Below, in pieces: positions 13,694-25,991 of a DNA stretch of 40,196 nt; the first letter of the stretch is position 1, and the number at the start of each line of letters is the position of its first letter. The translations under genes were made by a program, and so were the position numbers. The notes under the pieces were generated by a model. The model ran no database searches. It was not told where the DNA came from and saw only the letters and a list, made by a program, of their open reading frames with translations. This DNA is from an uncultured Pseudobdellovibrionaceae bacterium (GTDB lineage: Bacteria > Pseudomonadota > Alphaproteobacteria > UBA2400): assembly GCA_964429685.1 (NCBI GenBank), contig CAYSDE010000001.1, forward strand, positions 6,293 to 46,488. Reading direction: 5' to 3'.

Positions 13694-15025
13694 TTACCGC
13701 TGTTCTTTTTTTCTGCGGGTTGCCATGCCACGGTTGGCCGCGACCTTTTGCGGGCTGCGCTCAAACGCCAGCGCATCGGCAGAAACATCCGCCGTAATAA
13801 CGCTGCCTGCTGCAATCAGTGCATCGTTGCCGATGGAAACCGGTGCCACCAGTGCTGCATTGGAGCCGATAAAGGCCCCGGCCCCGATTTCGGTTTTATA
13901 TTTGCCAAAGCCGTCATAATTGCAGGTGATGGTGCCCGCGCCGATATTGGCACCTTTGCCGACACTCGCATCCCCCAGATAGGTCAGATGATTGGCTTTG
14001 GCACCAGCATCCATCACCGTATTCTTCAACTCGACGAAATTGCCGACATGACAGCCAGCGCCGATCTTGCTACCCGGACGCAGCCGCGCATAAGGGCCGA
14101 TACGTGCCCCCTCACCCACCGTTGCGCCTTCAAGATGGCAGAAAGCCAGAATCTCAACAGAGTCAGCAACAGTTACGCCGGGGCCGAACACCACATTGGG
14201 GCCGATGACCACATCCTGCCCCAATACGGTATCCCAACTGAACCAGACGGTTGAGGGGTCGGTCAACGTAGCGCCATTAGCCAGCGCCTTTACGCGCAGC
14301 CGCTTCTGCATAATGAGTTCAACCGCCGCCAGATCGGCGCGGGTGTTGACGCCCATCACATCTTCGTAATCAATTTCGACATGAGCGCAGACATGACCCA
14401 ACTGACGGGCAACTGCGATGGTGTCGGTCAGATAAAACTCGCCTTTGGCATTGTTGCTGGTGATACCAGCCAGCAGCTTGGGCAACAGCGCCCCGTCAAA
14501 CAGCATGATGCCGCCATTGCAGAGGGTGATTTTCTTTTGTCCCTCATTGGCGTCTTTCTCTTCAACGATGGAGAGAAGATTACCGCCTTCGATCATCAGA
14601 CGGCCATAACCGGTCGGGCTGGGCGGGGTCATGCCACTGACCACCACCGCCGGATTGTCCCCGGCGAGACGCCGTTCGATCAGCTTCTGCAGGGTTTCGC
14701 AACTGACCAGAGGCGTGTCACCAAACAAGACCAGCACATCACCCTTCAAACCGGCACAGGCTGACAGCCCGGCCCGCACTGCATCGCCGGTGCCTTTGGG
14801 TACAGCCTGCACTGCGGTTCTATGGGGAGCGACCACTTCCGCCAGCGCCGCCATGTCCGGCCCGATCACGACAATCACCTGCTGAGGATCAAGTTTTTCC
14901 CCCGCTGCCAGCGTATGCAGCACCATGGGACGTCCGGCCACCTTGTGCAGCGGCTTGGCCAGAGAAGATTTCATTCGGGTGCCCATGCCAGCGGCTAGGA
15001 CAATGCAGGAGAGGTTCGTTGTCAT
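13694..15025 (-). CDS. glmU: bifunctional UDP-N-acetylglucosamine diphosphorylase / glucosamine-1-phosphate N-acetyltransferase
   Basis: From ORF 13694..15061, whose listed start is a TTG. The ATG at 15025 (MTTNLSCIVLAAGMGTRMKS) is preceded by AAGAAGG. There is an N-terminal LAAGxGTRM nucleotidyltransferase motif and a C-terminal left-handed beta-helix of hexapeptide repeats. Confidence 0.95.
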   Translation of the reverse strand: MTTNLSCIVLAAGMGTRMKSSLAKPLHKVAGRPMVLHTLAAGEKLDPQQVIVVIGPDMAALAEVVAPHRTAVQAVPKGTGDAVRAGLSACAGLKGDVLVLFGDTPLVSCETLQKLIERRLAGDNPAVVVSGMTPPSPTGYGRLMIEGGNLLSIVEEKDANEGQKKITLCNGGIMLFDGALLPKLLAGITSNNAKGEFYLTDTIAVARQLGHVCAHVEIDYEDVMGVNTRADLAAVELIMQKRLRVKALANGATLTDPSTVWFSWDTVLGQDVVIGPNVVFGPGVTVADSVEILAFCHLEGATVGEGARIGPYARLRPGSKIGAGCHVGNFVELKNTVMDAGAKANHLTYLGDASVGKGANIGAGTITCNYDGFGKYKTEIGAGAFIGSNAALVAPVSIGNDALIAAGSVITADVSADALAFERSPQKVAANRGMATRRKKEQR

Positions 15026-15097
15026 GACAGCCTTCTTGCAATGAATCGGGCACCCTGCCAATTCAAGACATGTTACGGTTTGTGACTGAAAGGGTTT

Positions 15098-16315
15098 TCA
15101 GGCGGCGACTGGCATTGCTATATCCTGCCATGCCGTACCAAGAGCCGACACCAGCGCCGCCACATCCTCAGCGCTGTGCAGCGGATTGGGGGTAATGCGC
15201 ACCCGTTCGGTTCCGCGTGGCACGGTCGGATAGTTGATGGGCTGCACATAAATACGATGCTGCTCCATCAGCAGGTCGGTCAGGGCGCGGCAACGCATGG
15301 GATCACCAACCATCAGCGGTATGATATGACTGCGGTTGGGCAGAACCGGCAGACCGGCAACCTTGAGGGCAGCCTTGACCTCAGCTACCCGGCTACGCTG
15401 AGCCTGACGCTCGCTGTCCGAATTGCGAAGATGGCGGATGCTGGCCAGTGCTCCCGCACAGATGACCGGCGGCAACGACGTGGTAAAAATAAAACCAGCA
15501 GCAGAGGAACGAATGGCATCAACCAAGGCGGTCGAGGCCGTGATATAGCCGCCTACCATGCCGAATGCCTTGCCCAGCGTCCCTTCAATAATGGTGAGGC
15601 GGTGACTGTTGCCGGTGGCTTCAGCAATACCGGCACCGGTTTTGCCGTACATGCCGACCGCATGAACTTCATCCAGATAGGTCATGGCGCCAAAATCATC
15701 GGCCAGATCACAAATCGCATCAATGGGAGCAATATCACCATCCATTGAATAGACGGATTCAAACGCGATCAGCTTGGGCCGGTTGATGGGCGCAACGCTG
15801 AGCATCTCGCGCAGATGGGCCACGTCGTTATGGCGGAAAACGTGTTTCTCGCACCCGGCATGGCGGATCCCCTCAATCATCGAATTGTGATTGCATTCAT
15901 CCGAGAAGATCATCAGGTTCGGAATGATTTTGCCCAGCGTGGACAGCGTGGCATGGTTGGAGATATAGCCTGACGTGAACAACAGCGCTGCCGCCTTGCC
16001 GTGCAGCGCTGCCAGTTCCCGCTCCAGCAGAACATGCAGATGGGTCGTCCCGGAGATGTTGCGGGTACCGCCTGCCCCAGAGCCGAACTGGTCAATAGCG
16101 TCATGCATGGCCGCCAGCACCGTCGGATGCTGACCCATGCCCAGATAATCATTGCTGCACCAGATGGTGACCTGTTCCGGCTTGGCCTCGGGTGAGCGCC
16201 GCCAGAGCGCTTTCGGAAAACGCCCGGCAATCCGTTCAAGATTGGCGAAGGTGCGATAGCGCCCTTCCGCCTTGAGGCTGGAGATATGAGACTCAAAAAT
16301 ACCGTCGAAGTCCAT
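15098..16315 (-). CDS. hemA: 5-aminolevulinate synthase
   Basis: 405-aa ORF. MDFDGIF...[23 protein letters not shown]...[13 protein letters not shown]...ESVYSMDGD is the ALAS / alpha-oxoamine synthase pattern typical of Alphaproteobacteria. Confidence 0.95.
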
Positions 16316-17268: not shown

Positions 17269-17343
17269 GGGCGGTTAGCTCAGCGGGAGAGCACCTGCTT
17301 CACACGCAGGGGGTCGCTGGTTCGATCCCAGCACCGCCCACCA
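17269..17343 (+). tRNA. tRNA-Val (anticodon CAC)
   Basis: Hand-folded cloverleaf. Acceptor GGGCGGT/ACCGCCC, D arm GCTC-AGCGGGA-GAGC, anticodon arm CCTGC-TTCACAC-GCAGG, variable loop GGGTC, T arm GCTGG-TTCGATC-CCAGC, discriminator A and an encoded CCA. Confidence 0.95.
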
Positions 17344-17416: not shown

Positions 17417-17929
17417 CTATTTGTTACGCTGAGCTAGAATTTGTCCACTGCGCCAAAGCCACGGGGCTTGGGCCCGCCCCGCCCACATACCCCGTTTGGC
17501 AGCTTGAGCCACGCCCTCCATTAACGAATATTGGGGTGACAGGCTGGCAAAAGACATTGCCCAGCCAGCGCGCACAACAAGAGCCGCCAGATCAAGTCCG
17601 CCGACGGCACAGGTTCCCAGTTTCTGCCCGTGGAAATCCTGCCCCCGGACATAACAGGTAATCTGGTTCTGCCCGATCAACTGATTGAGCGCGGCCTTGG
17701 CCTTTTCAAAGCAGTTATAGCTTTGCCCGACCCGGTTGGTGCAGGTTTGCCCGTTATCCGGCGCATCAATGCCCCACAGCCTGACCACCGTACCGTTAAC
17801 AGAAATAACATCCCCCTCAACCGCCACCCCGGTACCGATGGTGGTCGGCAGCGAAGCGCTGGAGGAGGCTACTGCCGGATGGCCAAGCCCCCAGCACAAC
17901 AAGGCAGAAAGAAGAAGATGCTTCATCAT
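17417..17929 (-). CDS. secreted thermonuclease (staphylococcal nuclease, SNase-like) family protein
   Basis: 170-aa ORF with the signal peptide MMKHLLLSALLCWGLGHPAVA. VRLWGIDAPDNGQ matches the RLxGIDAPE SNase motif (Asp in place of Glu). Its start overlaps the upstream gene's stop (ATGA, 17926-17929). Confidence 0.8.
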   Translation of the reverse strand: MMKHLLLSALLCWGLGHPAVASSSASLPTTIGTGVAVEGDVISVNGTVVRLWGIDAPDNGQTCTNRVGQSYNCFEKAKAALNQLIGQNQITCYVRGQDFHGQKLGTCAVGGLDLAALVVRAGWAMSFASLSPQYSLMEGVAQAAKRGMWAGRAQAPWLWRSGQILAQRNK

Positions 17930-18993
17930 TTTGCCGAAGGACAGCTCTCTGCGCCAGCATAGGATGGCACCGCGTTCTGAAAAAATCCGGAGCGCTTGAT
18001 GAGGACAAGCATTTTATCACTGTCGACGACCGTGGCGGGAGGTTCAGCCCCGGCCAGAATAACATCCGTAAAGTCCAGCTCTTCAGAAGAATTATCGGAA
18101 GACTTTGTATCAGGGAGCATCCCCACAATGCAGTATTTGTTCTCGCGCATAAAATTGTTAATATCAAAAACCGTCGCACGGGCCAAAAAGCGAACCCGGA
18201 AACGGTTGAGTTCCCGATCCCGGGTGCAGCCTTGCGGCGTACTGACATCCTGATGCATCGTCGGATAACCCTTGCCGGAATACAGCCTGATGGCGGTGCG
18301 TGACAGATCGAAATCATCCCCGGCCAGAAAAACCCCGACCTGATTACGGGAGTCCGGGCAGGGAATCTCCGGCACCACCCGCGCCGCTACGCCAAAGGGA
18401 CGGGAAAACTTCTGGATATACAGATACGCCTGATACTCTGCCTGTTTCTTGAGGTCTGGCGTCAGAAATCTGTTGGCGTAGTCCATGTTCACATCCCTTG
18501 CAACATTGGGATTGCCTGTAAATGCGGTCTTGAACCAGGCATAGCCTTCAACCAGATCAACCGGACTGCCACATTTGCCTTCCAGATAGCTGCGCCCCAA
18601 AGCCAGTTGGGCGTTGGCCACCCCTTTTTCGGCAGCGGTGCGTAAAAGGGCGCGGGCTTCCGTAATCAGGCGAGGGTCAAGCCTGACCGCTGGCTGAAAC
18701 GAACGCGCCGCCGGGCAGCGAAGACTCTCAGCCCCAAGGCGGGCCATGCCCTGATAATCAGTAGCCAACAAGGCGGCCCGCTTGTTCTCAAAGGCCACCA
18801 GAGCGGGATCACGCGGAGGCTGCTGCACAACCGGTGCCAAAGGAAGCACGCCGTCCGCAGGCGGAAGCGGCGCCGTTGGCGGCACAACCCGCCGTATGGC
18901 AGGCGGCGCAGTCACCGGCACAGAAACACTCTGCGCCACCGCACTCCCCGCCACCACTCCCAACAGCATAACGCCAATCCAAAACCGGTGCAT
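17926..18993 (-). CDS. secreted hypothetical protein with Pro-rich linker and one or two Sel1-like repeats
   Basis: 355-aa ORF with the signal peptide MHRFWIGVMLLGVVAGSAVA and a Pro-rich stretch. AAEKGVANAQLALGRSYLEGKCG...EGYAWFKTA looks Sel1/TPR-like. The ~190-aa C-terminal half is unrecognised and visibly more AT-rich. Confidence 0.65.
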   Translation of the reverse strand: MHRFWIGVMLLGVVAGSAVAQSVSVPVTAPPAIRRVVPPTAPLPPADGVLPLAPVVQQPPRDPALVAFENKRAALLATDYQGMARLGAESLRCPAARSFQPAVRLDPRLITEARALLRTAAEKGVANAQLALGRSYLEGKCGSPVDLVEGYAWFKTAFTGNPNVARDVNMDYANRFLTPDLKKQAEYQAYLYIQKFSRPFGVAARVVPEIPCPDSRNQVGVFLAGDDFDLSRTAIRLYSGKGYPTMHQDVSTPQGCTRDRELNRFRVRFLARATVFDINNFMRENKYCIVGMLPDTKSSDNSSEELDFTDVILAGAEPPATVVDSDKMLVLIKRSGFFQNAVPSYAGAESCPSAK

Positions 18994-19057
18994 AGCCCCC
19001 CCTTAACCTAAGTTAAGCCCGAGGATAACACAGAAATTCCTTTAACCGTTATTCCCT

Positions 19058-19087
19058 TTGCAATTAACCATCTAAAAATTATATAAA
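19058..19087 (+). promoter_or_regulatory. candidate sigma70-type promoter in the AT-rich divergent spacer
   Basis: TTGCAA (19058-19063) is followed after 16-18 nt by TATATA/TATAAA (19080-19087). A GAGGGA RBS lies 11 nt before the ATG at 19126. Confidence 0.3.
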
Positions 19088-19125
19088 ATGATACGCCGTA
19101 TTTTAACCAAGAGGGACACTCAATC

Positions 19126-21381
19126 ATGTCATCGTCTTCCGACTTTAAAAAGACACTAAAGAAGCTTTCCACTGTCGCCAAGGGATCTGAGCGCTTTAAA
19201 GAAATCGAGATCAGTAAGCTCTTCTCTACACTACGGGAATCGGCGATTGGCAATGCAGATCGCAGCGCCGACCTCATCCAGACAACACTGAGTCTGTTGC
19301 CCAATACCGATGATTCTACTTCTTCCCACTTACTCGGAGAACTGGAGAAAACCAACACCGCGATGAAGGATTGGGCCGCGCAAAATAAGACATCCTTCGT
19401 CCCTACCTTTACCACACAGGGAGTGGCCGTCCTTCCTGCCCTCGTTGCCACGAATAGAAAAGTTGCCGCAGATCTCTTCCGTGCCCTATGTCATGAGGAC
19501 GACACATGGAAAAGCGATGCCGCCCCCATCAGCGCCGCCCTTGTCACAACGGGAATGGAACTCCTTTCTGAACGCATCACTGCCTCTGAGGTCTACACGG
19601 CTGCCTTCGTCGCCTATGACCTGAAGAGCTTGCTAAGGCATACTATAAAAGACGAAAGTCTTGTCTCTGCCTGTCTCAGGCAGATAGTGAACATCGTTCC
19701 TGTCCTTGCCAGGAAACATCCTGATCTCGTTTCTGAGATGGGTAAGAATCTGCAATTAACAGTCAAGTCCTATCCTAACCTCTCCGCCGTCTTTGTCAAA
19801 GAAGGAGTGGCCCTCCTTCCTGATCTCGCTGCGGCAGAAAAGGAAAAGGGCGAAGCTGCTGCGGGCACTACCGCCAAGTTCTTCTCGCACTTGCGTGAGA
19901 CAGCAAACAATAACTCTGCCCCCCTCGCATCTGACTTGATCACCGGGACACTACCACTCCTTCCTGCCGTCGCTGCCGCGAATAGCGACGCTGCCATCGA
20001 TATCATTTCAACACTGAAACAAGCATCGCATATGGGCACCACATATAAAGACATGTCCCCTGTCTTCGTCAGAGAGGGACTGCCCATCCTCTCCCCCCTC
20101 ACCACTCAGGGGGGCCACGACACTGCCGCTCACCTCGTCATCGCAATAGCAGAAAACGTGCAAGGTACTCCAGCAACCCCTCCTAATCGCCTAATAACGC
20201 GCGATAAACCCCTCAACACCGACCTTGTCACACAGGGACTGAGCATTCTTTCCGGCGTCAAAGATATCCGCCTTGCCGGTCGTATCGTCTTCGGACTGGC
20301 CAGAATAACCGCCCAGAGGATTGATGATGAGCCTCTCACCCGCACCATCGTCAAACAGGGACTGGCCATCCTTCCTGCCCTCGCCGCTAAAGATGGCGAT
20401 GTGGCCGATAAGGTAGTTTGGGCCATGGGAGAAGCCGCAAGGCACGTACAGGACGCTGTAGAATATTCCAAAAAATACAGCGATGGCCTCGTCAACGCCG
20501 CCTTCATTCCCACTTTCGTCGAAGATGGACTGGCCATCCTGCCTGAAGTCGCAGCCAAGAGAGGCAGCACTGCCGGCAAACTCGTCGTTGCAATGACGAA
20601 GGCCGCACGGGGCGATGATGCCCTGACCGCTAAGGTCTTCGCACAAGGGCTGGACATTACTTCCGGACTCGATGCCAAGAATGCTGCCGAACTCATCACC
20701 GAGTTGGCAAAAGCCGCGCAGGGAAATGACACCCTTACCGCCGCCGTCGTCACGCACGGACTGGACATTACTTCCAGACTCGATGCCAAGGATGCTGTCG
20801 AACTCGTCACCAAGTTGGCAAAAGCCGCGCAGGGAAATGACACCATCACCACCAACGTCGTCACGCACGGACTGTCCATCCTTCCCGCCCTTGCTGCCAT
20901 GGATGAGTATGAGGCTTCCAAGTTGGTCACGGTTCTGGCGAAAGCCGCGCAGGGCAATGATACCCTCGTTACCGGGATCGCCACACAGGTGCTGGCCGCC
21001 CTCCCCCCTCTTGTCGCCGCTAACAGTCCCACGCCCCCCCACCTTATCGAAGCACTGGCGGAGACCAAAGTCATTGATGTTGGAAATGGCCTGGTTTGCC
21101 AGGAATTCATGATCTCTGCTCCGGACGGAGAGGGCCAACAGACGGTCATCTGCTTTGGCAACAGTCCTGATAACACAATGCTGAAAAGAGATTATTTTAC
21201 TGGACCGTTGACCAAATTCGAGTCAGAGGTAAAATCCCGCTGGACAGAAGGATCCTCCATGGTGACACACCATCAGGGAGTTCTCGGTACCGCTTTTGCA
21301 GCGCTTGCCCACCGTGAAACCCTGCCAAGCTTTCTCGGAAATGCCGTCACCGCCAAAGCTGCTGCTCCAGCCTGCGCCTGA
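19126..21381 (+). CDS. large tandem-repeat protein, predicted alpha-solenoid (HEAT/ARM-like), function unknown
   Basis: 751-aa ORF with no signal peptide. It holds about 14 repeats of 37-55 aa anchored on G-[LV]-x-[IL]-L-P-x-L-A-A (GVAVLPALVA, GVALLPDLAA, TLPLLPAVAA, GLAILPALAA, GLAILPEVAA, GLSILPALAA, VLAALPPLVA...). A non-repeat C-terminal ~110 aa follows. Composition is more AT-rich than the neighbours. Confidence 0.8.
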   Translation: MSSSSDFKKTLKKLSTVAKGSERFKEIEISKLFSTLRESAIGNADRSADLIQTTLSLLPNTDDSTSSHLLGELEKTNTAMKDWAAQNKTSFVPTFTTQGVAVLPALVATNRKVAADLFRALCHEDDTWKSDAAPISAALVTTGMELLSERITASEVYTAAFVAYDLKSLLRHTIKDESLVSACLRQIVNIVPVLARKHPDLVSEMGKNLQLTVKSYPNLSAVFVKEGVALLPDLAAAEKEKGEAAAGTTAKFFSHLRETANNNSAPLASDLITGTLPLLPAVAAANSDAAIDIISTLKQASHMGTTYKDMSPVFVREGLPILSPLTTQGGHDTAAHLVIAIAENVQGTPATPPNRLITRDKPLNTDLVTQGLSILSGVKDIRLAGRIVFGLARITAQRIDDEPLTRTIVKQGLAILPALAAKDGDVADKVVWAMGEAARHVQDAVEYSKKYSDGLVNAAFIPTFVEDGLAILPEVAAKRGSTAGKLVVAMTKAARGDDALTAKVFAQGLDITSGLDAKNAAELITELAKAAQGNDTLTAAVVTHGLDITSRLDAKDAVELVTKLAKAAQGNDTITTNVVTHGLSILPALAAMDEYEASKLVTVLAKAAQGNDTLVTGIATQVLAALPPLVAANSPTPPHLIEALAETKVIDVGNGLVCQEFMISAPDGEGQQTVICFGNSPDNTMLKRDYFTGPLTKFESEVKSRWTEGSSMVTHHQGVLGTAFAALAHRETLPSFLGNAVTAKAAAPACA
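20530..20991 (+). repeat. intragenic in-frame tandem DNA repeats (units of 120/111/111/120 bp)
   Basis: Units begin at 20530, 20650, 20761 and 20872 (ctggcc/ctggac/ctggac/ctgtcc). By hand alignment, units 20650-20760 and 20761-20871 differ at about 10 of 111 positions. The motif ttggcaaaagccgcgcagggaaatgacacc recurs at 20704 and 20815, with a variant at about 20935. Confidence 0.85.
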
Positions 21382-21393
21382 TGTTTTCGGGGA

Positions 21394-21431
21394 GGGAAGA
21401 TTGGGTAAAAGTTGATTCACCCAATCTTTCC
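21394..21431 (+). terminator. stem-loop downstream of the repeat-protein gene (candidate terminator)
   Basis: GGGAAGATTGGGT (21394-21406) pairs with ACCCAATCTTTCC (21419-21431), giving 13 bp with one G-U and a 12-nt loop. It is followed by tcttcgcg, with no clean U-tract. Confidence 0.4.
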
Positions 21432-21469
21432 TCTTCGCGCCTATGGCAAGCTGGGCTAAGTTCGCGGGT

Positions 21470-22316: not shown

Positions 22317-24974
22317 ATGTCTCGGTTTCGTTTTAAGGCGGCTCTGGCTGCTGCATGCGCGCTCTGGTTGCTTGGAGCTCCACTAGAGGTTTCGGCAGCC
22401 CAACAGGTTTCTACGCTTCCGCTCACTATCCAGCTCAACCTGCGGACCGCCGCCGCGCAAGGTAATCCCCAATTGCTGAATGCAGTACAGCAGGCCGTCT
22501 CAGCTAATCCCACCATCGCGCAATCCATCGTCAATCACGCCGCTGCCCTGAAACCCAGCCTCTCCGGCGAGTTGGTGGCGACTGCCAATCAAACCCTACG
22601 CAGGGCGGAAGTCACACGTAGACTGCAGGAAATTTCCAAACGTGGTGGGGCTAATCCCGTTGACTCAACAGCTTCTGTGGACGCAGCAGGTCTTTCAACC
22701 GGAGAAATGCTTGCTGGTGGCGCGCTGGCGATGGGAGCCGCCGCTGGTATTGCTGTGGCCGTCATTGGTAATGGCGATGCCACCACCAGTCCGGCAGCGG
22801 CGGAGTTCGCAGGCAATTATGCGCTAAGCGAAATCGGGGTTCGCAGTGCCTATGCGCGAGGTGCCACTGGCGCAGGCGTACTGGTCGGCGTTGTGGATAG
22901 CGGCATTGATGCCAACCATTCGGAATTTACCGGACGTATTGCAGCAGGGGGCCAGAACTTCATTACCAGTCGCACCGCCAGCAACATTCAGGATAGTTCG
23001 CTGGACGGTCACGGTACGCATGTTAGTGGAATTATTGCGGCCAACCGCAACGACGTTTCCGTACACGGCGTTGCCTACGGGGCGCAGATTCTGCCGCTGC
23101 GTATTTTCGAGACTGATTCGATGGGTATCGACTACGTAGCAAGTGGTTCTGATGTTGCCGCGGCCTGGGCTTATGGCTCAGCGCAGAGCGTTGATGTGTT
23201 TAATGGAAGTTATGGTTATTCCGGCGGCAGTGGCGTTGCGATTCAGGTTGATGTGACAGCTGCCGCTGCCGAGTTTGACGCGGTTGAATCGGCCATTAAT
23301 GCCGGAGCCATCGCGGTCTTCTCCGCCGGAAATGACGGGCTGTCCAACCCCGGCCTGCCTGCGGCCATTCCCTATATCGAAGCTGCTCATGACTCTGCCG
23401 GAATCATCTATGAGAACAATCCCGGCAAGGATTACTCGGCGCTGGCTGACCGCCTGATTGCCGTGGTTGCAACAGATACCACCGGCGAAATTGCCAGCTA
23501 CAGCAACCGCTGTGGCGTGGCCGCCGCGTGGTGTATCGCCGCGCCCGGCAGCAGCATCTATTCGACCTTTCCTGACCTGACCTACGCTACTCTAAGCGGA
23601 ACTTCGATGGCCGCTCCGCATGTCACCGGCGCCGTCGCCCTGCTGATTGATCTCTATCCCAGCCTGACTCCGGCACAGATCGTCAACCGTCTTTTTGTGA
23701 CCGCCCAGAAGACCGGGGTTTACTCCGACAGTTCGGTTTATGGTCAAGGATTCCTCAATCTGACCTCAGCCACAGCACTCGTCGCCCACGGCCTGATGAT
23801 GACCGGGAGCAGCATTGCCGACCCGGCCTACACACTGGATGCCAGCACCATTACGCTGGCGCCCGCCTTTGGCGATGGCCTGTCTGCTTCACTGGCAAGC
23901 CGCCAGATGGCCGTGGTTGACAGCTTCGATGGTGCACCCATCCGCATGAGCGCCAATACCGTGGTCAAACTGGCCGAAGCCAATAACACCATTGATGACG
24001 GCGCCCGCCGCTTTGGTCGTGGGTTCAAGGTTGAGCATTTTGACGGCCCGATGCAGGGCACTCTCAGCTGGCGCACTGTCCCCGGCAACCGCGATCATGA
24101 AGCCAAGATTGAAGGGCGACTGGTCACAGCCTTCAGCCCGACCACACAGACCACCATAGGTTATATGGATGATCCCTCGCTTGGCTTCGGCCTCAGCGGT
24201 GACGGTATGGTTGATACCAGCACCACCCGTGCCGACGGTGCTTTCCTGTCACCTTATCTGGGACTGGCTGACAACAGCATGAGTGTGGCGACAGAAACAA
24301 AACTGCATGGCCTGACTTTCCGCGCTGGCTCCTTCTTCGGCACGCAGGAAGATAACCGGAAAGCAGAAACCTACGGCGCAATGTCTGAAATGAGCTTCAC
24401 GCCGTTTGAAGGTAGCCGCGTCGGCATGCAGGCCGGTTTTGTCAGTGAAGGATCAACTTTCCTCGGTACGGAATCCGCGGGCGCCTTTGATATGGGCCGC
24501 TCCACCACCAGTTATGGCGGCCTGTCCGGCAGCCTGCAAATCGCCGGGAAAACTGATCTGGTTGGCAGCTACTTCTTCGGCATGAGTCAGATTGACCCGG
24601 TAGCGGGCTCGCTGGTAACCGGTTTCAGCGGTGTGACCTCGGACTCGTTCACCCTCGGCGTCATCCATCATGATCTTGCCTTCAAGGGCGACCGCGTCGG
24701 TCTGCTGCTGAACCAACCGCTGCGGGTGAATGGCGGCGGCGCCAGCCTGCGCCTGCCCTCCGGTGTCAACCGCGCCTATCAGGTCAGCTATGATGCCGTA
24801 AATGCCAGCCTGACCCCGAGTGGCCGCGAGCTTGATCTGGAAGCTTTCTACGCCGCCCCGCTTGACGAACAAACCAAAGTCAACGCCAGCCTGATGTACC
24901 GCCACCAGCCCGATCATGTTGCTACGGCTGATGATGAAGGGCAGATGATGGTGCGGGTGGAGCGGAAGTATTAG
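22317..24974 (+). CDS. autotransporter with subtilisin-like (S8) serine protease passenger
   Basis: 885-aa ORF with the signal peptide MSRFRFKAALAAACALWLLGAPLEVSA. Catalytic triad motifs: VGVVDSGID, DGHGTHVSGIIAA, LSGTSMAAPHVTGAVALL. The C-terminal ~280 aa has alternating beta-strand character and ends in an aromatic residue (...VRVERKY), as in autotransporter barrels. Confidence 0.9.
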   Translation: MSRFRFKAALAAACALWLLGAPLEVSAAQQVSTLPLTIQLNLRTAAAQGNPQLLNAVQQAVSANPTIAQSIVNHAAALKPSLSGELVATANQTLRRAEVTRRLQEISKRGGANPVDSTASVDAAGLSTGEMLAGGALAMGAAAGIAVAVIGNGDATTSPAAAEFAGNYALSEIGVRSAYARGATGAGVLVGVVDSGIDANHSEFTGRIAAGGQNFITSRTASNIQDSSLDGHGTHVSGIIAANRNDVSVHGVAYGAQILPLRIFETDSMGIDYVASGSDVAAAWAYGSAQSVDVFNGSYGYSGGSGVAIQVDVTAAAAEFDAVESAINAGAIAVFSAGNDGLSNPGLPAAIPYIEAAHDSAGIIYENNPGKDYSALADRLIAVVATDTTGEIASYSNRCGVAAAWCIAAPGSSIYSTFPDLTYATLSGTSMAAPHVTGAVALLIDLYPSLTPAQIVNRLFVTAQKTGVYSDSSVYGQGFLNLTSATALVAHGLMMTGSSIADPAYTLDASTITLAPAFGDGLSASLASRQMAVVDSFDGAPIRMSANTVVKLAEANNTIDDGARRFGRGFKVEHFDGPMQGTLSWRTVPGNRDHEAKIEGRLVTAFSPTTQTTIGYMDDPSLGFGLSGDGMVDTSTTRADGAFLSPYLGLADNSMSVATETKLHGLTFRAGSFFGTQEDNRKAETYGAMSEMSFTPFEGSRVGMQAGFVSEGSTFLGTESAGAFDMGRSTTSYGGLSGSLQIAGKTDLVGSYFFGMSQIDPVAGSLVTGFSGVTSDSFTLGVIHHDLAFKGDRVGLLLNQPLRVNGGGASLRLPSGVNRAYQVSYDAVNASLTPSGRELDLEAFYAAPLDEQTKVNASLMYRHQPDHVATADDEGQMMVRVERKY

Positions 24975-25196: not shown

Positions 25197-25991
25197 CTAC
25201 GGCCTCGGGGTCGGACGGGGTTGTTGACTACGAGATTCAACAACACCAGGATCTATAAGATACACATTGTTTATCCCATGCTCATAAACCTTGGCCGCAG
25301 GAGCCACATTCGTTTGTGCGGCCCGTGGCTGGTATCCTGCAGGCACGGTGTGCTGATACGCATAGTCGCCAGCAAGTCCGAAAGGCTTCAAAAGATTCCC
25401 GGTGTCTGACAAGTCGATCTTGCTGACTTTGCCCGAGGAATCAACGCGCAGACCTTCTACCACATAAAGCCCCTCGCCCTTGAAACTGCTGGCTTTAAAC
25501 TGACCTTGCGTGGCGGCTTCGTATTCCTGAGCATGACCGGTAGTCTGCGTGCGCCATTTCTCTTGCGCGTTCGGGTTGGGGGGTACGCTGCTGCCGACAT
25601 ACGCACGATTGAACACGTCAACATAATCTCCCTTGGTATGGACGAGAATTTCGGCCATCGTCCTGTTGCCAAAGCCAAAGTCTTTCACAAGCTCGATACC
25701 GGTAACGCATGGTTCCTTTTTGGACTGACAGGCTGCAATACGCTGCTGCAAAAGCCCAAGAGCCTGCCTCTTGTCATCAGGATGTTGAAGATACGTATCG
25801 TACTTCATCGCCTTCACGGCATTCATAATTGCCTGCGTAGAAACAGTCGGTGCAGCAGATGGCGTAGGTTTGATTGTAGATACGGCAGCGGCAGTAGTTG
25901 CCACTACAGGTGCAGCGTCAGCGGGCGCGCCAGTAGTTGCAAACAAGGTGGCAGCGGCAGCCACAACACCAGATTTTTTCATATTAACCAT
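25197..25991 (-). CDS. secreted hypothetical protein
   Basis: From ORF 25197..26021. I prefer the ATG at 25991 (MVNMKKSGVVAAAATLFATTGAPADA...), which is preceded by GGGAGA. It has a signal peptide, an Ala/Thr/Pro-rich linker and then a ~200-aa unrecognised domain. It looks more AT-rich than the backbone. Confidence 0.65.
   Translation of the reverse strand: MVNMKKSGVVAAAATLFATTGAPADAAPVVATTAAAVSTIKPTPSAAPTVSTQAIMNAVKAMKYDTYLQHPDDKRQALGLLQQRIAACQSKKEPCVTGIELVKDFGFGNRTMAEILVHTKGDYVDVFNRAYVGSSVPPNPNAQEKWRTQTTGHAQEYEAATQGQFKASSFKGEGLYVVEGLRVDSSGKVSKIDLSDTGNLLKPFGLAGDYAYQHTVPAGYQPRAAQTNVAPAAKVYEHGINNVYLIDPGVVESRSQQPRPTPRP

Follow-up and report, generated by a model that had tools for sequence, protein, structure and literature searches.

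A horizontally mobile family of predicted HEAT-like solenoid proteins in uncultured Alphaproteobacteria

Gene content and organization of the locus

Here, we describe a gene in a 40,196-nucleotide stretch of DNA (hereafter the window) from an uncultured Pseudobdellovibrionaceae bacterium of the Alphaproteobacteria (assembly GCA_964429685.1, contig CAYSDE010000001.1). The gene occupies positions 19126..21381 of the plus strand, stop codon included, and encodes a protein of 751 aa, named P0001 below. P0001 is the longest known member of a tiny and previously undescribed family that occurs in few uncultured Alphaproteobacteria and combines a HEAT-like solenoid with a C-terminal domain that has no detectable relative. 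The gene itself is accessory and forms a self-contained cassette, which brings its own promoter and is followed by a terminator-like hairpin; the family is in part horizontally mobile. The genome from which the window was taken (G000) comprises 2.04 Mb in 264 contigs and is estimated to be 79% complete. Its GlmS is matched best at 72% (a contig in an Azospirillum sp. assembly) and 69% (a Micavibrio sp. MAG), which is too thin a basis for proposing predation of the Micavibrio type.

The reading frame starts with an ATG, 10 nt downstream of a Shine-Dalgarno (SD)-like sequence (AAGAGGG), and is backed by 10 homologs as well as by confident AlphaFold2 (AF2) models. P0001 itself is known from one contig only, and long open reading frames (ORFs) are present on the opposite strand too, which might point to a decaying or non-functional ORF that stays open by chance in Ala-rich and repeat-rich DNA. 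We find this hardly credible: the 751 open codons, the SD-like sequence, the promoter module and the hairpin all speak against it, as do the conservation of the C-terminal domain over 12 sequences at 17-46% identity, the confident AF2 models and the identity of a paralog, P0010, in six assemblies.

In a first-pass annotation of this DNA, made from its letters alone, the gene was considered AT-richer than its surroundings and driven from a very AT-rich spacer, and both statements hold. P0001 is moderately AT-richer than the long ORFs of the genome, with a GC content of 54.7% (9th percentile of 722 long ORFs) that falls to 50.3% in its first 660 nt (3rd percentile); its GC content at third codon positions is 58% (9th percentile) and its codon-usage distance lies at the 93rd-98th percentile. 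The spacer (18994..19125, plus strand; 132 bp, 37.9% GC) is a divergent promoter region common to P0001 and to a co-inserted gene for a Sel1-like secreted protein of 355 aa (17926..18993, minus strand). Beyond the latter lies an SNase gene that is also divergent from P0001. The proteins encoded by both genes have N-termini that resemble signal peptides when judged by eye, in agreement with the earlier description of two divergently encoded secreted proteins. The gene had also been placed next to a tRNA gene, which is too loose: tRNA-Val is at 17269-17343, 1.8 kb from P0001 with two genes between them, and the intervening SNase gene is conserved in relatives. On the other side, a hairpin stands between the P0001 stop codon and the start of cysQ (21388..21437, plus strand; 19-bp stem, -29.8 kcal/mol, z = -5.05); apart from its lack of a T-run, it resembles a terminator.

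No signal peptide and no transmembrane segment were detected in P0001, whose highest Kyte-Doolittle value over 19 residues (KD19) is 1.73 and lies within a repeat helix. The N-terminus is hydrophilic and Ser/Lys-rich as noted before, with 13 Ser or Lys among residues 1-30. The isoelectric point (pI) is 5.8 for the whole protein and 5.5 for the repeat array, and that of the N-terminal cap (aa 1-46) is basic (9.9); in 13 of the 14 family sequences the pI is about 4.8-6.3.

Repeat array and predicted solenoid fold

P0001 is composed of three parts, an N-terminal cap, a long repeat array and a C-terminal domain. The cap (aa 1-46; 19126..19263, plus strand) is modelled as two helices, H2-19 and H25-40, and carries a DFxxxLxxLxxxA motif that is also present at the N-termini of other family members. 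The array (aa 47-650; 19264..21075, plus strand) holds 13 detectable two-helix HEAT-like units of 37-55 aa. These were found with a repeat hidden Markov model (HMM) iterated from the three best P0001 units, which placed copies at aa 47, 94, 135, 219, 267, 310, 363, 404, 463, 500, 537, 574 and 616, spaced by 37-56 aa with a single exception, a gap of 84 aa. Beyond the seeds, 8-10 copies were recovered, as compared with 0.1-0.5 when the flanks were shuffled. The strict anchor G[LV]x[IL][LT][PS]x[LV] occurs eight times, and the sequence AKAAQGNDT, previously noticed as a repeat ending, closes three units (aa 528, 565 and 605). Part of the array is young: an in-frame tandem duplication of one 111-bp (37-codon) unit lies at 20650..20874 (plus strand; 2.0 copies, 91% identical), and the units at aa 500-536 and 537-573 share 96 of 111 nucleotides.

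Structural models were built by AF2 with an alignment of 14 family sequences. The full-length model of P0001 (predicted local distance difference test, pLDDT, 83.5; predicted template modeling score, pTM, 0.69) shows about 32 helices in successive pairs over residues 1-647, i.e., about 16 pairs, and the DSSP assignment confirms that the pairs alternate across residues 44-647. The first-pass annotation had proposed about 14 degenerate repeats of 37-55 aa forming a two-helix solenoid, which is well matched by the 13 HMM copies and the helix pairs of the model. The consensus of 61 repeats reads as helix A, turn and helix B. Conservation is concentrated in helix A, GLA[VI]LPA[VL]AA (GLxILPxLA in P0001), and in the core Leu and Ala residues of helix B, and the most variable positions are 18, 21, 22, 25, 26 and 29. 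Because their spacing is i, i+3/4, i+7, these positions fall on one face of helix B.

When the full model was compared with the PDB by Foldseek, 164 matches were obtained at E <= 1e-3, nearly all of them to HEAT-type solenoids, and the HEAT-like two-helix class suggested earlier was thereby supported. The top matches were Kap114, TNPO3, Kap95, CRM1, exportin-4, RESC, Utp10/20, CAND1 and SF3B1, the best of them with E-values of 3e-6 to 1e-4 and a probability of 1.0. According to these models, P0001 is an alpha-solenoid of the HEAT-like class, the class being matched and the exact geometry not. Armadillo repeats (about 42 aa, three helices) were ruled out by the two helices per 37-40-aa unit and by the lack of an Arm match in Pfam. 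By sequence, comparisons of P0001 with Pfam, NCBIfam and (by phmmer) the PDB returned no curated family or solved structure, in line with the earlier statement that no family could be assigned.

The solenoids retrieved in this way, i.e., importin-beta/karyopherins, CAND1, SF3B1 and Utp10/20 (PF02985, PF13646, PF13513), are non-enzymatic protein binders. They resemble P0001 in their stacked antiparallel two-helix units of about 37-47 aa, in the conserved Pro of helix A and in the Asp/Asn of the turn, and they are its best structural matches. P0001 differs from them in that it is bacterial, belongs to a tiny and lineage-restricted family, has a very regular and young array and ends in a unique alpha/beta domain. 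A second comparison may be made with the phycobilisome-lyase-type HEAT proteins (HEAT_PBS, PF03130; CpcE/NblB), which are bacterial and cytoplasmic, as P0001 presumably is, and have short helical repeats as well. Unlike for CpcE/NblB, the host is not a cyanobacterium, no sequence match links the two groups, and the genes of the P0001 family have no housekeeping character, being accessory and mobile.

The C-terminal domain

The domain that defines the family comprises aa 651-751 (21076..21378, plus strand). It had been noted as a distinct C-terminal region that matched nothing recognizable; it is real and is the best-conserved part of the family, being kept across 12 sequences at 17-46% identity. 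A separate AF2 model of the last 210 aa reached a pLDDT of 87 and a pTM of 0.78. Residues 650-746 are modelled as four short strands and two longer helices and, with less confidence, a further short helix at the C-terminal end. The conserved motifs are (C/T)(R/Q)EFM ... FG ... HY..VL.TAF.AL..R..LP(S/T)F, and a short tail rich in Ala and Pro comes after them. No match to this domain was obtained in Pfam or NCBIfam, and a profile search against the PDB was also without match. With Foldseek, the 210-aa model, which includes a part of the repeats, gave best E-values of 0.25 (PDB) and 0.08 (BFVD); these weak matches were rejected as noise since they lay on the helical part or were to beta-solenoids.

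Invariant positions of the domain are mainly hydrophobic, with E660 as the sole near-invariant polar residue, and a conserved Asp/Glu/Lys triad of the nuclease type was not found. Together with the acidic pI, the mostly hydrophobic invariant positions argue against an enzyme and against a nucleic-acid binder. The latter was considered as a modular protein comparable with TALE, PUF, PPR or OPR/HPR-plus-RAP-like proteins, in which one base would be read per 37-aa unit, with the C-terminal domain acting on the bound RNA or DNA. Regular 37-aa two-helix units with few variable positions would suit such a role. An array of repeats followed by a small C-terminal alpha/beta domain resembles the OPR/HPR-RAP proteins, and weak Foldseek matches were obtained to helical-repeat chains of the Toxoplasma mitoribosome and to RESC proteins. 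On the other hand, P0001 is acidic over its whole length and within the array, the pI is 4.8-6.3 in 12 of the 13 other members, no RAP, PUF, PPR or TAL match appeared in Pfam at E <= 10, and the nuclease-type triad is missing. We thus regard a nucleic-acid-binding function as very improbable.

The tails of many members are rich in Ala and Pro (aa 737-751 in P0001; e.g., AAAPACA, AAVPANA, TAPVAA, QAPAAA and NPSVA across the family) and are modelled with an AF2 confidence below 50. They recall non-polar C-terminal degrons, and proteolytic control of these proteins is possible.

Family size and distribution

When 1.84 billion representative proteins were searched exhaustively with phmmer, only 12 matches were obtained: P0001 itself, ten true relatives (217-522 aa) and one weak, repeat-only match to a fungal ARM-like protein. 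All true relatives share one architecture, in which an N-terminal half-repeat, (D/S)Fxx(x)LxxL, is followed by 2-10 repeats and then by the same C-terminal domain. With P0001 included, the number of 37-40-aa units ranges from 2 to about 16. P0001 had been described as an orphan. This is correct insofar as no curated family includes it, and incorrect insofar as a small family exists, with two paralogs of P0001 in the same genome. The three copies of G000 are P0001, P0010 (414 aa, contig C49, between proS and pflB) and a fragment truncated where contig C64 ends. Six independent assemblies have an identical P0010 at this locus.

No further member was found in 40 relatives or in 400 genomes sampled across the class. 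Pattern-based scans of 185,579 species-representative genomes, and of JGI metagenome contigs and IMG/VR viral contigs, were negative, and tblastn searches detected no member among PLSDB plasmids and INPHARED phages. Word-indexed searches retrieved the window's own proteins alone, their candidate lists being filled by low-complexity words. One record name carries the sample label 'activated sludge metagenome'; the sample accessions gave no hits in the literature.

Lineage-specific insertion and horizontal mobility

To place the locus in an evolutionary context, it was compared with the corresponding regions of two sister genera (genomes G001 and G003), in which cysQ and the SNase gene are only 100-165 bp apart. 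In G001, synteny is kept both in the PBP1A-prfB-cysQ flank and in the opposite flank, SNase-DUF3108-aminotransferase-glmU-glmS; the G003 contig stops just beyond the SNase gene. Since cysQ and the SNase gene are adjacent in both sister genera, the Sel1-like gene and P0001 represent a lineage-specific insertion of 3.5 kb (about 17930-21442 of the window) between them. The Sel1-like gene was not found near other family members. A tRNA-targeted island was rejected, since it is the SNase-cysQ junction and not the tRNA that received the insertion. As for tRNA-Val, it stands here between the DUF3108 and SNase genes, and ARAGORN detected no tRNA in the 16-kb syntenic region of G001, so that its position is lineage-specific.

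Strain variation was evident at other loci of the family. The contigs that carry P0005 and P0006 share 91-98% identity with G000 in their housekeeping genes, which indicates that they come from the same or a sister species. The loci of these two members (sucA-kamA and atpH-priA) differ from that of P0001. The P0005 site is empty in G000, where 62 bp are present in place of 1.17 kb; no clean transposition signature was found at this pair of filled and empty sites, the segment being replaced without a target-site duplication. P0011 is inserted between ygjP and ompA, two genes that are adjacent in G000.

Several members are associated with mobile elements. A serine-recombinase (resolvase) gene lies directly downstream of three members from two distinct clusters, including P0003 and P0004. 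Another of these three, P0013, is carried as cargo by a plasmid-like contig of 13.3 kb (L015, JGI 3300056855) that encodes RepA_C, ParA, KfrA and three toxin-antitoxin pairs (RelB/YafQ, ParD/ParE and BrnA), besides insertion sequence (IS) fragments and the resolvase. P0007 is found near TraG, a relaxase and KfrA. P0013 corresponds to P0003 plus one 40-aa unit; considered together with the 111-bp duplication in P0001, this difference indicates that the array grows and shrinks by whole units. The suggestion that P0001 was horizontally acquired is thus upheld by its insertion relative to sister genera, its atypical composition and the plasmid, resolvase and conjugative contexts of its relatives. 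Neither homology to a housekeeping family nor conserved synteny was found.

The C64 copy (L002:567-604) and the plasmid-borne P0013 (L015:10793-10830) share the first 38 bp after the stop codon at 89% identity, including an inverted repeat; the two proteins are only 65% identical. This suggests a recent exchange between chromosome and plasmid. Beyond the promoter module and this C64/P0013 hairpin, long stretches of shared flanking DNA were not found among the members. A conserved partner gene was not found either, the 89-aa neighbours of P0005 and P0007 being unrelated to each other.

A dispersed element of 87 bp, whose 30-bp core (CATGGACTCCGGCTTTCGCCGGAGTGACGG) forms a hairpin, is present in the genome. 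It was identified at L006:9891-9977, where it lies between a degenerate promoter module and the start of P0005, and at C92:4511-4597 of G000, with shorter copies on contigs C201, C69, C81, C143, C20 and C165. It looks like a repetitive extragenic palindromic (REP) sequence or a repeat of the miniature inverted-repeat transposable element (MITE) type.

Genes with such a history may take part in genetic conflict, for instance in anti-phage defence, anti-defence or plasmid exclusion, with the array sensing an invader protein and the C-terminal domain serving as a small module for effector action or signalling. Defence proteins commonly contain helical-repeat sensors, e.g., the sensor regions of DSR2 and Avs. 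Family members travel as solo cargo in plasmid, resolvase, IS and conjugative contexts, are polymorphic in presence or absence between near-identical strains, and combine a hypervariable helix-B face with turnover of repeat units. However, PADLOC and PHROG searches with seven members gave nothing significant, the sole PADLOC match being at chance level (E = 0.0085, 13.5 bits). The proteins have no enzymatic or NTPase domain, no conserved partner gene and no conserved residues of catalytic type in the C-terminal domain, P0010 is stably fixed, with one and the same sequence in six assemblies, and the CtrA-type promoter described below suggests developmental rather than defence regulation. A role in genetic conflict therefore seems quite unlikely to us.

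Promoter module and the CtrA-type regulon

The spacer upstream of P0001 contains a putative promoter module on the plus strand. Box 1, TTAACCGT (19042..19049; -84 from the ATG), has one mismatch to the CtrA-type 8-mer. It is followed by a -35-like TTGCAA (19058-19063), to which box 2, an exact TTAACCAT (19064-19071; -62 from the ATG), is directly joined, and by a -10-like TATATAAA at about 19080-19087. The module is common to the upstream regions of P0001, P0013/P0003, P0011 and P0004, whose proteins are only 21-46% identical, and consists in general of two sense-strand boxes of the TTAACCA(T/C) type that are 21-23 bp apart, the second directly after a -35-like TTG(C/A)AA. It is degenerate at P0002 and P0005 and partial at P0010. 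Judging by these motifs, the module seems to travel with the gene.

The ungapped form of the CtrA motif is TTAACCAT, and sites through which CtrA activates lie near the -35 region (PMC6180460). Several features of G000 agree with a use of this motif in the organism. In intergenic DNA it ranks first of 560 8-mers of the same composition, with 39 occurrences against a mean of 4.6 (standard deviation 3.8). Intergenic DNA makes up 10.7% of the genome and accounts for 41 of the 63 occurrences of the motif. Genes preceded by it include fliF, fliL, cheA, a methyl-accepting chemotaxis protein (MCP) gene, a PAS-GGDEF gene and the gene of a GspE/PilB-type ATPase, and a CtrA ortholog is encoded at C189:1700-2428 (NF045991, 423.6 bits; cut-off 350). 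Of the 1798 genes of the genome, only four have a pair of such boxes between -110 and -38. It is credible, judging from these motifs, that P0001 is a member of the CtrA regulon.

The arrangement is reminiscent of the flagellar, chemotaxis and pilus promoters of the CtrA regulon in Caulobacter, Rhodobacter and Ruegeria, in which a TTAACCAT box abuts a -35-like element (PMC6180460). In contrast to the classic genes of this regulon, the predicted module described here has two boxes about 22 bp apart and travels with an accessory and partly plasmid-borne family.

The other genes of G000 with double boxes may be mentioned here. Contig C32 (14192-15915; locus L124 = 14256-15263) contains two adjacent ankyrin-repeat genes with TTAACCAT upstream of each, the first as a double box; judging by the boxes, one or both may represent another eukaryote-like repeat protein in the CtrA-type regulon of P0001. 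Two boxes of the TTAACCAT type, about 22 bp apart, are also located upstream of C47:6214-6576 (120 aa) and of C146:1710-2699 (329 aa, for which Pfam gave no match). P0001, the ankyrin gene and these C47 and C146 orphans are the only genes of G000 with such double boxes. A second exact TTAACCAT of the window, at 25984-25991, may not be a regulatory box, as its reverse complement ATGGTTAA may simply hold the start codon of a minus-strand gene for an orphan secreted protein.

Possible functions

The first-pass annotation had attributed effector-like features to P0001 and likened it to proteins of host-associated Alphaproteobacteria. To evaluate this, the secretion machinery of G000 must be considered. 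VirB4 (PF03135), VirD4 (PF02534) and TssC (PF05943) were not found in the 79%-complete genome. Its sole FHIPEP gene adjoins fliG and fliF and is therefore flagellar. TolC homologs are present, and no RTX-type motif (GG.G.D) occurs in P0001. By its gene content the organism is flagellated and chemotactic, has ordinary biosynthetic genes and encodes about four ankyrin-repeat proteins, a number similar to that of its relatives. Together with the activated-sludge label, this leaves both the effector reading and the host-associated lifestyle unsupported.

As an explanation of the whole family, a translocated effector or a protein that interacts with a host or prey, with the C-terminal domain or tail acting as secretion signal or host-acting module, is nevertheless to be weighed. 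A fold of the HEAT/karyopherin type is typical of eukaryotes, and the one weak sequence match outside the family is the fungal ARM-like protein. The family members are lineage-specific and multi-copy, diverge fast and vary between strains; their termini are conserved and their middle is variable, and the neighbour genes in the window encode secreted proteins. In addition, activated sludge is rich in protists, which we connect with the sample label by inference. Known effectors such as the ankyrin and ARM-like Dot/Icm substrates of Legionella and Coxiella, RipS/SKWP of Ralstonia and XopAD of Xanthomonas likewise have eukaryote-like helical repeats, paralogs, variable repeat numbers and horizontal mobility, and lack a Sec signal. 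P0001 shows no homology to any of these effectors, occurs in a 79%-complete genome in which no marker of a cognate type III, type IV or type VI secretion system (T3SS, T4SS, T6SS) was found, and is connected with activated sludge rather than with a known host. Moreover, its C-terminal domain is confidently folded in the AF2 model and is not a disordered signal, the single FHIPEP is flagellar, RTX motifs are missing, the organism looks free-living and motile, and members are linked to no secretion genes except those of conjugative transfer. An effector function is thus considered unlikely, and the case illustrates that eukaryote-like repeats, the lack of a signal peptide and an odd composition are insufficient to call a protein an effector.

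The explanation that we favour, and in which our belief is evenly balanced, is that P0001 is a cytoplasmic, non-enzymatic scaffold or adaptor that binds proteins and is expressed as part of the CtrA regulon. It would stay in the cytoplasm because it has no signal peptide or transmembrane segment and an acidic pI of 5.8, and it would be non-enzymatic because the invariant positions of its C-terminal domain are mostly hydrophobic with only E660 polar. The conserved helix A and the hydrophobic core probably make up the solenoid, ligand specificity would depend on the variable helix-B face (positions 18, 21, 22, 25, 26 and 29), and the C-terminal domain would do the same for every member, e.g., serve in docking, capping or oligomerisation. 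CtrA would activate transcription through the two TTAACCAT-type boxes, one at the -35 region and one upstream of it, and P0001 would then be co-expressed with the flagellar, chemotaxis and pilus regulon.

Several points weigh against this scaffold explanation. What suggests a scaffold is the modelled fold class alone, and the comparison with solved HEAT proteins gave low TM-scores (0.1-0.41, with root-mean-square deviations of 13-30 A). Pfam scans of P0001 and of the 14 members revealed no match to HEAT, HEAT_2, HEAT_EZ, HEAT_PBS or Arm at E <= 10. Upstream of P0005, P0006, P0007, P0008 and P0010, the CtrA boxes are missing or degenerate, their conservation among the other paralogs could in part reflect shared ancestry, and the boxes, being located in a divergent spacer, could serve the Sel1-like gene instead. 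Finally, a secretion system could be encoded in the missing 21% of G000.

A bolder variant, which we hold to be highly improbable, is that the gene is a portable and CtrA-timed cassette, moving between chromosomes and plasmids with its double-box promoter, for a 'programmable binder' that is retuned when helix-B faces of its repeats are added, deleted or mutated and that is exported by the flagellar type III apparatus, its C-terminal domain being a new fold. Flagellar export may be envisaged because the protein would be co-expressed with the flagellar regulon and lacks a Sec signal. If true, it would offer an effector route for bacteria that possess no injectisome, T4SS or T6SS.

As for the CtrA-type promoter module that appears to accompany this accessory gene, its confirmation would give an example of mobile cargo that connects itself to the alphaproteobacterial cell-cycle and motility regulon. 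The evolution of the family is unusually clear, with solo insertions at varied sites in near-identical strains, gain and loss of whole repeats, and copies in plasmid and resolvase contexts. Overall, the family is of modest significance until a ligand, a localisation or a phenotype is found, and the short members (217-266 aa) are tractable for determining the structure of the new C-terminal domain.

Other genes of the region

In the vicinity of P0001, an S8 subtilase gene (window 22317-24974) encodes an autotransporter-like protein of 885 aa. In G003, a counterpart with 46% identity is present at the same site, and none was detected along the 16 kb of syntenic G001 sequence; the subtilase gene is thus another variable gene at this locus. 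The window genes around P0001 also include ordinary biosynthetic ones.

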